This document shows, one piece after another, positions 59,486 to 63,129 of a DNA stretch of 64,000 nucleotides. How positions within the stretch are numbered: the first letter of the stretch is position 1; the number at the start of each line of letters is the position of its first letter. The stretch comes from Saccostrea echinata. Taxonomy: Eukaryota. The notes beneath the pieces are model-generated. The model did no database searches. It saw only the letters and a program-made list of their open reading frames with translations, and was not told where the DNA came from. The position numbers and the translations under genes were made by a program. Location: the NCBI RefSeq assembly GCF_033153115.1, contig NW_026889803.1:37634001-37698000 (forward strand). Reading direction: 5' to 3'.

Positions 59486-61317
59486 TGTAACAAGTCGAGC
59501 AAAATAAAAACTCCTTTGTCAGGCATAACAAGTTTTTATTGAGGATGGCAACAATCAAGAACAATAACAACGAATGAGATGCTGACCATTCAGACAATAG
59601 GTGACCACAAAAAAAAGGGGAGGGGTGAACTTGTCTTGCGACTACATTGCACTTTTAATCTATTTTAACAAGTATCTGCAAACAACTCTTTGTTCTCGAA
59701 CTCAAAGTAAAAAACTTTGCTTAAATAATTGCTTAAAAATAATTGTAACTGATTATTTAGAGTATTGCCAAAAATAATTCAACAAGCGACGACCCGGACA
59801 GTCCCTAACTATTTGGAAAATCTAAATAAACTATCTCTGTACTAAACTTTTAGATATGCCTAATATTAAACTCTAATGCCACTTATCTTATGGAAAATTG
59901 TGCGTAAACTATTCAGAACATGTATATACTCTCAAAATGAATTTATTTTCAGCTCAAGCTAATCCGAACAAATACTGCCAAATCCGGACAAGCCATTCCG
60001 GACAATAATAACCTAAGTGAACTTAACTGTGAGAACTACTCTGGACTTCCGAACAAACGATCCGGATAACTATTACAATATATAAACGTGACATAAACTA
60101 ACAAATAAACTTCTGTCAACTTGGAAACGACTGACTAATATAAATGTTCCGGTCATAAGTCCTAATTAATAACTCGAACTGTAAACAATTAAACTACTGG
60201 TCTACATGACTGGAATAATCTCTATACTCTTAAAACTGTCCTGTCCGGACGCGCAAGACCTTATAAAAATTAGCATCATCCACTACAAGATTTATCATTT
60301 TGCATACCTTGGACTTTCTCTTAGGATCTAGTTCTAACCAAACAACCCGAAGGGATGAAGAGTCTAGAGTGTCGAGATGTTGAAGCTGGGTCCTATATAT
60401 ATATAACCTTCTATGACCAATCAGCGTTTGTACTTTTTGTCCGGAAAATTTATACCCAATCCAAACGCTGTACGGATCTATGGAAATTCCGAACAATTCC
60501 CGATATCCGGACAAGCTGAATTAAAACCCTTAATAATCATTTAATGAACAATACAAGGCCTTGTCCGGATTGCTTTAATTATATGGACACTAAATAATAT
60601 AATTGATTTAATAAACGAAAATGTCCAGGACTACGTAGTTTTGTTATAAAAATCAAGATTCGAATCTAGGCGCCTTATAAGGTAGTGCGCGCAGCGATAT
60701 ATGTGAATACGGAAGTGTGACCTCACAACATAGTGCACCGATGAGATCGATAAAATAAGACAAAAGTTCACCATCATAAGGTAAAAAATAGACAAAAATA
60801 GTGGTCAGCATCATTTTACAATAATTCAAGATAAAAATAATGTACAACATGGTTGAATAGTGAAAAATCAAGCAGCAGAATCACAAGTGACAAGATGAGT
60901 AGTGAAGCGGTCAGTCAGAGAGAAACACATGGTAAAGTACTCAAGAAGTTCGCGAGCGATAAAATGACGATTTCACATAGATGAAAGTAAAAGAATGCGC
61001 TGGTACTGAACATACATCAACAACTGGTAATTATAAACGGTTGTAGTTTAACATTTAGCATTGTTTTGCCGTATTTGCTAAGGAATTTAGAGAATAAAAT
61101 TTGTAAACAAATGATCGAAAATGGGGGATGTTGTCAAAACACGAACGGTTAAACTGCAAATTTTGTATACCAAATCTGAGTTAAAATAAGACATAACAAA
61201 TGCTGCTTAAGCTTAATAAATCACTTTAAAATCATGTACTATGATTATAGTAAATTCCCATCCAGAATAAACTAATTGTAAACAATATGAGAGCACATGA
61301 AGGTGTCACATATTACA
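59486..61317 (-). repeat. 3' LTR (~1.83 kb) of a second Gypsy-like element
   Basis: On the minus strand it begins TGTAAT after PPT-like AAGTGGGTTGG and ends GTTACA. TATA run at ~60394-60405, AATAAA ~50 bp before the end. The motif AATTCAGGAGAATT upstream is shared with 6941-6954. Confidence 0.7.
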
Positions 61318-61543
61318 CCAACCCACTTGAAAAATACAAAATTCTCCTGAATTTTAGGATATGTACATTTAAGATAGCCTAACAGGAATATTCCTTTTCT
61401 TAATCTGATCAATGATAATATCGAGTCTTTTTGTTCTCTTCGGGGAAACCGATTCCATCATACATATAGAAAATCCTTGTCATCTGCATTCCTTGCCCCC
61501 TTCACAGCGATGGCACTGAGTTTCTTATACGCAGCTATGTTAA

Positions 61544-62407
61544 GGCTTCCCGAAGCTTTAAAATGCGCTCAAAACATAATATGTCATTGCGAGGTGGGTT
61601 TTGGTTTTAATTTATAAGTATTGAACTTTAGTACTTCCAATTTATATAAAGGGTTTCCTCGGTTATATTAACGTATTTGTTATGATATCACATGACTTTG
61701 TTGATCACGTGACGGTCATTTATAATTTTTTGAAGTGCTTCATATAAATCGCTTCGGAGCAGCTGATTAACACGATAATTATTAACATTTTGTTATATAA
61801 ATAAACTCATCTTATCCTTGTGTATTCGAAATGTGCTTGGGAAAAGTCATGGTATTACTTGGGTACAAAATATTTCCTGAGAAGTTCAACTTACCTACAA
61901 ATTTGAGGGTATTTTCCACACAATATCGTAATCTGTATTAAAACAAAGCCAACACACATTTTTCCCAAGCAAGATTCAGTTAGAGTATAACCTCTTCTTA
62001 CAGATTTCCACAAAAATTCTCAAATTAATCCTCACCAATCACCTGCGCCAGACTCTTTTATGCACACAAAATAAATTCTACCTCCAACTACGGGTATAAA
62101 ACAGAGTACATTTCAAAAGTATATTTTTCATAAGCATTTTGAACATGCTGAATTTCAATCAAGGGTAGGTAATCGGTGTATTTTAAAAATAATCGGACAA
62201 ATACGACTTAAAAAACCTTTAACGACCCTTGAATTTTGCAGTAGCTACCTGGCATTTTACATGCAGTCTGAAATAAAGTGTGAAGTTCATGACACTCTCC
62301 CCGTCATAAAACCTCAAGTTTGCAGTGACTTGACGTCATTTTCCATTATGACGTCATATTTTGGTATTTCAAAGATGTGAAGGCACTGTGATATTCTACG
62401 GGAAGCC
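61544..62407. mobile_element. Kolobok-like non-autonomous element
   Basis: TTAA|GGCTTCCCG(A/T)AG TIRs with TTAA on both sides. Confidence 0.8.
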
Positions 62408-62411
62408 TTAA

Positions 62412-62917
62412 GGTATTCAATGTATAACGACCATATTTTGTACCTAAAAAATGAATGGTCCAATATTTTAATCACGGTAGCATTTTGAAGGTGTTACCAA
62501 ATAAAAATGCTCCACCAAGGGAATTTACAATAATTTTGATTATTTTCCAGTTAATTGCACCTTGAATTTTACATTGAAGTCTATGGGCAGTGCATGTTTT
62601 TTTAAGATATTGTAAAAAGTAATTAGAATTTCAAACAAATCTCTTGGTGAAAATATGCATAAACTCTCTCTTTATTAATCTATGAAATAAAATGAATCAT
62701 TTACCACAGAAATTTTGAGAAATTAAAAATTTTCTGATTTTAATCAAGGGGAGATAACTCTTCAAAAACTTTTAAGGTGCAAAATGACCAGCGTCTTACT
62801 TGTAATCAGTCAGGTGAATTTGGTTCATTTCACTTTTATCGTTATCTAGCAATGCATTTTTAATAGTTTAAATTTATTAAAAATTGATAAAAATCCCTTC
62901 ATTATACATTGAATACC
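62412..62917. mobile_element. Kolobok-like non-autonomous element (second family), sharing a TTAA with the previous one
   Basis: 16-bp perfect TIR GGTATTCAATGTATAA with TTAA on both sides. Confidence 0.85.
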
Positions 62918-63129
62918 TTAACCTACCTGTGTAATTATAGAACCTTAGCTTTCTGTCTACCTCATCATCAGATGACATGGACGATTTGGTCGATACGGGC
63001 AAACACAATATGTTATACCTTGAGAGAAGCTGTATCCTAAAGAAGATGCTTTCTGCTGACAGAATGTCATTGGTCTCAAGCTGAAGCGCTGCAAATTCCC
63101 ATGCCTGCAATTCTGCGCGGGTACGTTAA

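Follow-up and report, generated by a model that had tools for sequence, protein, structure and literature searches.

The window analysed here, a 64,000-nucleotide stretch of the oyster Saccostrea echinata (contig NW_026889803.1, positions 37,634,001 to 37,698,000), carries a long terminal repeat (LTR) retrotransposon at each end, element 1 on the plus strand at the left and element 2 on the minus strand at the right, each with an extra open reading frame (ORF3) behind pol. The 3' LTR of element 2 (59486..61317, minus strand, 1832 bp, TGTAA...TTACA) has a predicted TATA box (60392..60408, minus), five TGTNCGG sites upstream of it (60436..60568, strand unassigned) and six further sites downstream (60248 to 59800), so that the LTR holds 11 sites where dinucleotide shuffles predict 0.4. 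A candidate splice donor, which is a sequence match only, lies ~95 nt past the TATA box (60302..60311, minus). Next to the LTR, again on the minus strand, are a G-rich stretch resembling a polypurine tract (PPT; 61318..61328), the 14-mer AATTCAGGAGAATT that precedes the PPT and forms an inverted repeat centred on AGGA (61340..61353), and the end of the ORF3 C domain, which is frameshifted and includes the stop (61369..61529). Two neighbouring TTAA-flanked inverted-repeat insertions (61544..62917, strand unassigned) separate this part from the middle part of the C domain (62931..63107, minus; 84% identity to the C10 relative). A preliminary description of this locus had recognised these two insertions; a third, nested one follows (63108..64000, strand unassigned) and continues for 109 nt outside the window. 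The possibility of an intron at the 62917 junction was dropped, as intact relatives are continuous across the same point.

The remainder of element 2, for which the preliminary description had pointed past position 64000, was located 1.6–7.8 kb beyond the window and comprises the ORF3 start, pol remnants, gag, a primer binding site (PBS) and a partial 5' LTR with 95.2% identity to the 3' LTR over 1024 nt. ORF3 is broken by three insertions and frameshifts, pol has a large deletion, and this copy is dead. The 59486-61317 segment gave 47 matches in the genome (40/53 candidates scored), 21 of which, not counting the window copy, are near full length with 89–91% identity; several are paired ~9 kb apart, and the segment does recur as an LTR, as had been proposed.

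Element 1 enters the window with the 3' part of its 5' LTR (1..509), with a TATA box and a candidate donor (151-160), followed by the PBS TGGTGTCAGAAGTGGGAT (515..532), which is identical in five families read and which we take to be of the tRNA-Leu type, decayed gag and pol (893..4910), a decayed ORF3 with a pyrimidine tract and TAG just before it (5653..6914), the 14-mer and PPT (6941..6975), and the 1106-bp 3' LTR (6976..8081), all on the plus strand. The 3' LTR has TGTACG sites at 7353, 7531, 7561 and 7853, a TATA box near 7608 and a candidate donor near 7713. Peptides quoted previously for the two ORFs are present, in three frames each, at 62931-63107, 61479-61529 and 61372-61476 on the minus strand (element 2) and at 6588-6911 (element 1), and the claimed homology of the C-termini was confirmed: when the window sequences were aligned with each other, with X at each break, the Smith-Waterman score was 49 (28/107 residues identical), which 0/5000 shuffles reached (mean 24.2, sd 4.2, max 48), a significant but modest result. 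The 166-aa C domain of an intact relative made it firm by finding element 1 in the genome at E 8e-5; the same query matched other families at E 1e-25 to 1e-19. A tblastx comparison of the element 1 ORF3 region with the rest of the window gave no significant match because both window copies are fragmented. Behind both ORFs stands the same 14-mer, as described, found within the window only at 6941 and 61340-61353 and each time followed by a G-rich tract and a TGTAA LTR. The two LTRs, previously called dissimilar, indeed show no blastn match better than E 0.25, but they have a repeated 6–7 bp motif in common. The 14-mer as an ORF3-specific signal was ruled out by ATTCGAGGACGAAT-type hairpins before the PPT in several sister families; it is the type-A form (type A denoting ORF3 as in elements 1 and 2) of a pre-PPT hairpin occurring also in those families.

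Five relatives (L022-L026) were read completely. They encode gag (325 aa), pol (a 1277-codon frame) and a third ORF of 625 aa, which is open in 4/5 relatives and has one stop in the fifth. In an intact relative the Pfam order of pol is protease, reverse transcriptase (RT), RNase H and integrase, without a chromodomain match, and the element has a gag CCHC knuckle, PBS, PPT and TG..CA LTRs. Target duplications of 4 bp (ATAT, GTAT) flank 2/4 relatives, those on C29 and C10. By every feature tested this is a Ty3/Gypsy element, and as its LTR pairs are 99.1–99.8% identical in three relatives (94% in a fourth) and its ORFs intact, we conclude that it is a recently active Ty3/Gypsy family without env. 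Three of the relatives (L022-L024; G000:C30:16288072-16317666) form a tandem array of three bodies and four common LTRs, the outer two LTRs being 99.8% identical, and the array ends without target duplication. L022 and L026 have 99% identical RT, the same LTR and the same finger half of ORF3, and differ in the linker and C domain (73%), where synonymous sites are saturated; sequence comparison thus identifies the difference as a module swap, the window copy of element 2 being of the L026 type. Since the LTR and finger half are the same despite the swapped C domain, the fingers stay with the LTR.

AlphaFold2 predicts that ORF3 consists of three folded domains joined by disordered linkers, which are of low complexity and vary in length: an N domain (residues 1-143, fingers and helices), an alpha/beta domain in the middle (182-272) and a C domain that is mostly helical (pLDDT 85–98 over residues 1-140 in the N-terminal model; 96.5 for the 168-aa C-domain model). 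The N domain holds two C2H2 fingers, matched by PF00096 in 8/10 rows (best E 1.7e-5; at the cut-off in one member), with metal ligands 98–100% conserved and a profile match to CTCF fingers (E 2.8e-4). The 625-aa protein had no Pfam match, and ten members yielded C2H2 models only; among sequences of solved structures there were zinc-finger matches only, the best E for the C domain being 0.23. A fold search with the C domain among 48,161 chains found no clear match (best Z 5.4 over 58 residues), and one in BFVD nothing under E 0.001. Similarly, Foldseek with the joint N and middle model against PDB gave nothing under E 0.001, its weak rows including zinc fingers, and the ESM Atlas, queried with the O. 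edulis homologue, no usable match. Besides the fingers, ORF3 would carry two undescribed domains, and the modelled C domain matches no Pfam family or fold. Finger 2 has R at position -1 in 52 of the ~63 rows with a residue there and D at +3 in 59/67, and an R(-1)/D(+3) finger presumably reads N-C-G under the C2H2 code. Basic K[KR]x[KR] motifs occur in 36/55 linkers (12.6 in shuffles), and Y-x-P-[ST] or Y-[ST]-P-[ST] motifs occur in type-A linkers of 28/55 proteins (2.2 when shuffled); the latter motif presumably resembles the heptad of the RNA polymerase II C-terminal domain.

Searched with the C domain, the genome yielded 51 places at 31–100% identity, distributed over six element families, that of element 1 among them. 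Between families the proportion of synonymous differences (pS) is 0.77–0.93, i.e. saturated, and that of nonsynonymous differences (pN) is 0.17–0.41, with RT at pN 0.10 in the same comparison; the ORF3 domains keep 44–73% identity. A profile search of 1.84 billion proteins returned 364 clusters (50% identity); among the best 150 of these, 74 are at least 400 aa long, and the N domain is also present in 58/74. Twenty clusters were looked up and the organism was named for five (Ostrea, Mytilus, Dreissena and, twice, Pecten); with further homologues from Saccostrea, Crassostrea, Magallana and Pinctada, all the named ones are bivalve. One Magallana gene model joins pol pieces to the ORF3 start. 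No long fused form of ORF3 was seen among proteins of 1438–4105 aa, which is weak evidence given this size range. When the ORF was mapped on an RT/RNase H tree (73 loci, quick search), as the preliminary description had advised, the C domain was found in 13 of the 15 loci of one clade (SH-aLRT 100), two lacking it, and in none outside; L077, whose long branch reflects an unrelated RT match (28%), was left out of the clade count. Of 60 loci selected solely on RT similarity, which include the two clade members lacking it, none showed the C domain in the 10 kb read. The ORF3 tree matches the RT tree at the one supported pair and is otherwise unresolved. With the ORF open in recent copies of five families and synonymous sites saturated, these sequence comparisons support the earlier claim that it is an old, selected gene, here of one RT clade; its age would follow from the spread over bivalve orders, with horizontal transfer a possibility.

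ORF3-type sequences were also met outside elements. A lone 582-aa ORF3-type gene without finger 1 (L058:1495-3240, minus; G000:C2:21250169-21251914) has neither gag, pol nor the 14-mer around it in the ~30 kb read, and it is 70% identical over its full length to Ostrea edulis XP_048733676, its sister in the tree (100/100); this is likely a domesticated oyster host gene. Four TTGT[CT]CGG sites (L208:5907, 6235, 6667 and 7820) lie 14–16 kb upstream of it. In Pecten maximus, XP_033725108 and XP_033731722 (P0117, P0107) carry the C domain at the end of proteins with several annotated isoforms, whose N-terminal part is kinase-like by eye.

Over-represented words in the LTRs converge on TGTNCG(G): GTCCGGA is present nine times in the LTR of the element 2 family, and CCGTAC(A) or CGTACA four to five times in four others. 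TGTNCG was enriched in 6/6 type-A family LTRs (p 0.003–0.03) and in 1/27 non-type-A proxies, with most type-A sites ~40–170 nt upstream of the TATA box and on both strands; the internal region of the element has 3 sites in 7430 nt. Eight further copies gave p < 0.05 in five cases and 0.056 in one, and two truncated LTRs failed (two further copies without the 14-mer were left out). By blastn, the LTR of the element 2 family matches none of the four others compared with it, and for some LTR pairs the motif region is the sole or a main alignable block. The motif holds CCG or ACG, to be compared with the presumed N-C-G reading of finger 2. We infer that the ORF3 fingers may bind the repeated TGTNCG(G) sites in their own LTR.

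A pyrimidine tract and YAG at most 12 nt from the ATG precede 10/18 extra ORFs compared with 6.6% of control positions (p 4e-8; three ORFs with a doubtful start or without an element were left out). By type, the acceptor is found in 4/5 of type A, 6/9 of type B and 0/4 of types C and D together, types B to D being the extra ORFs of sister clades (see below). Donor-like sites lie 71–123 nt past the LTR TATA box in four families; a fifth has the donor, its TATA pattern having been missed. These signals suggest that ORF3 is made from a spliced mRNA joining the LTR donor to the acceptor before the ATG. Contigs taken by guess to be RNA (four runs, two samples, one study; depth ~2–5) covered parts of the LTR, pol and ORF3. 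Run X1 contigs over L186:2862-6229 have five minus-strand GT-AG joints in pol, i.e. antisense spliced RNA.

Taken together, we put the probability at roughly 0.55 that ORF3 is a spliced, nuclear, self-encoded activator or anti-silencer of its LTR. Its mRNA would be spliced from the 5' LTR donor to the acceptor directly before the ATG, the protein would enter the nucleus via its basic motif, the fingers would bind the TGTNCG(G) cluster in the LTR of the same element, and host machinery would be recruited through either the middle domain or the C domain; transcription would be sustained or silencing resisted, with positive feedback as in foamy-virus Tas or plant VANC. Several points weigh against this proposal. 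The helix residues of finger 1 are variable, and C2H2 fingers can bind RNA or protein as well. The motif was derived from five of the six LTRs later tested, which is partly circular, and the held-out sixth family was weaker (5 sites vs 1.6, p 0.02–0.04) and without TGTNCGG. The non-type-A proxies used for comparison were stretches after the PPT or ORF standing in for LTRs. Motif and ORF3 mark one and the same clade, which amounts to a single event in phylogenetic terms, and the motif could also be a site for a host factor that was retained by descent; the element 2 version (CCGGAT/A) presumably resembles an ETS core. The LTR donors are sequence matches without a null comparison, and the low-depth contigs of the four runs held no LTR-to-ORF3 joint.

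The main rival, which we regard as unlikely, is that ORF3 acts as a Rev- or CERV-like RNA adaptor in the export or protection of unspliced genomic RNA, in which case the LTR motif would be a host-factor site. An LTR donor with an acceptor before ORF3 would leave genomic RNA intron-retaining, motif copies downstream of the TATA box would sit in RNA, and the proline-directed Y-x-P-[ST] motifs could be phospho-sites as in CERV; CERV of Cer1, which is needed for export, occupies the same slot, is made from a spliced mRNA and consists of three domains with flexible linkers (PMC10309623). However, the sites that are best conserved are found upstream of the TATA box on both strands, which suits DNA, finger 2 retains its base-reading positions, and the M and G folds of CERV, compared by description only, differ. 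Less probable again would be counter-defence through protein contacts, in which ORF3 would oppose piRNA, chromatin or ubiquitin pathways as a decoy or adaptor and would not bind the LTR sequence-specifically. Sister families that fill the same slot with BTB_2 or TQT-like motifs, the C domain that also ends two scallop kinase-like proteins, and antisense spliced pol contigs suggesting that the host meets the family with antisense RNA all agree with it, but it leaves the conserved finger-helix residues and the clade-specific motif cluster unexplained.

An integration-targeting or particle factor, tethering to a host DNA motif or acting in the capsid, is improbable: with pol showing no chromodomain match a DNA-binding accessory could steer insertion, but ORF3 is a separate ORF with its own splice signals, and the motif lies in the LTR and was not noticed in the few flanks read, no flank survey having been made. 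Very improbable is an env-like fusogen, whose position and splice signals ORF3 has; the protein starts with zinc fingers instead of a signal peptide, lacks a hydrophobic leader in the alignments and, in most members, the transmembrane anchor of an errantivirus-like env, and has basic motifs like nuclear localisation signals as well as low hydropathy (among 55 full-length ORF3s, 19-mers above 1.6 in 5 and above 1.9 in 2; median best 1.09).

The slot behind pol is filled differently in sister clades. Type B extra ORFs (205–300 aa; 21 loci: L128, L131, L133, L135, L138, L140, L143, L144, L147, L161, L162, L178 and copies) have C2HC and C2H2 fingers, a W-x-x-x-DP motif, a basic R-K-x-T-x-P motif and a beta-rich terminal end, and 11/12 rows show a TQT-like motif, which we take to be for LC8 binding. 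Type C (L132, L137, L139, L182; n = 4) combines an acidic N-terminus with two fingers and a coiled-coil-like end. Type D (L149, L166, L167, L168, L172; n = 5) ends in a KCTD-type BTB domain (PF02214, BTB_2; 4/4 tested, with E between 7e-19 and 2e-14). In L149 and L172 it also has Cys/His fingers at the N-terminus, and the type-D LTR proxies repeat different motifs (ACCCA, TCCCA, AAGGTG). In a fifth type (L126, L154), TQT motifs occur together with a DPRFF-GAPS motif. On the RT tree, loci of the same type group together; the decayed fifth type of L126 stands inside the type-A RT clade, and replacement is therefore implied. Tentatively, and at somewhat less than even odds, we read this large bivalve Gypsy lineage as having a modular slot behind pol (two fingers, a disordered linker and a swappable effector), spliced, each occupant reading its own LTR motif, with one copy now an oyster host gene. 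The effectors swapped would be a new fold in type A and BTB, coiled-coil or TQT tails in the sisters. Elsewhere in the window, positions 30944-32281 (minus) hold a single-exon rhodopsin-family G protein-coupled receptor ORF (PF00001, E 1.5e-25).

The usual view of animal Gypsy elements is that they consist of gag and pol, in some cases with env, and are driven by host factors. Foamy viruses encode Tas/Bel1, a DNA-binding activator beside the 3' LTR that acts on the virus's own promoter; unlike ORF3, it belongs to Retroviridae, uses an internal promoter and has no C2H2 fingers. The described mollusc Ty3/Gypsy elements (Metaviridae) have the same gag, pol order, PBS, PPT, LTR ends and 4-bp duplication, and are classified on RT/RNase H in a report whose main text does not contain the words 'ORF' and 'zinc' (PMC6238403). 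VANC of the Arabidopsis VANDAL elements is likewise an accessory protein encoded by its element, and the short motifs that it targets recur in the non-coding DNA of that element, but VANDALs are plant DNA transposons, the action of VANC has been shown, and its targets vary by family whereas the ORF3 motif is clade-wide (PMC5735166). In the ORF3 elements, the comparable feature, a short repeated motif in non-coding DNA of the element itself, was found in 6/6 type-A LTRs, a partly circular result. CERV of C. elegans Cer1 has exons in common with Gag, contains a C4-like loop as well as a G-protein-like domain, and acts in RNA export (PMC10309623), whereas ORF3 starts at an ATG of its own, carries C2H2 fingers and matches no fold. 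Bdelloid LTR elements likewise have a third-ORF slot interchangeable across families, filled by esterases, exonucleases, transmembrane or env proteins, and 'zinc' and 'BTB' do not occur in the available text (PMC5408684). The ORFs covered in that of PMC10294476 are LINE and DDE ones, and 'LTR' does not occur in preprint 10.64898/2026.08.24.746577. ORF3 may be likened to VANC, Tas and CERV by function or position, without shown homology. No description of the ORF3 family was found in the literature searched; Repbase, subscription journals and supplements lay outside that search and may annotate it.

The family supplies two undescribed, confidently modelled domains, accounts for many bivalve gene models labelled 'uncharacterized C2H2' and leads to an oyster gene that is likely domesticated. 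If the modular-slot reading is true, an animal LTR retrotransposon would here encode its own transcription-factor circuit. Such a regulator, sequence-specific, encoded by the element and with a candidate target already named, would make the self-activation of animal retrotransposons against host silencing directly testable.

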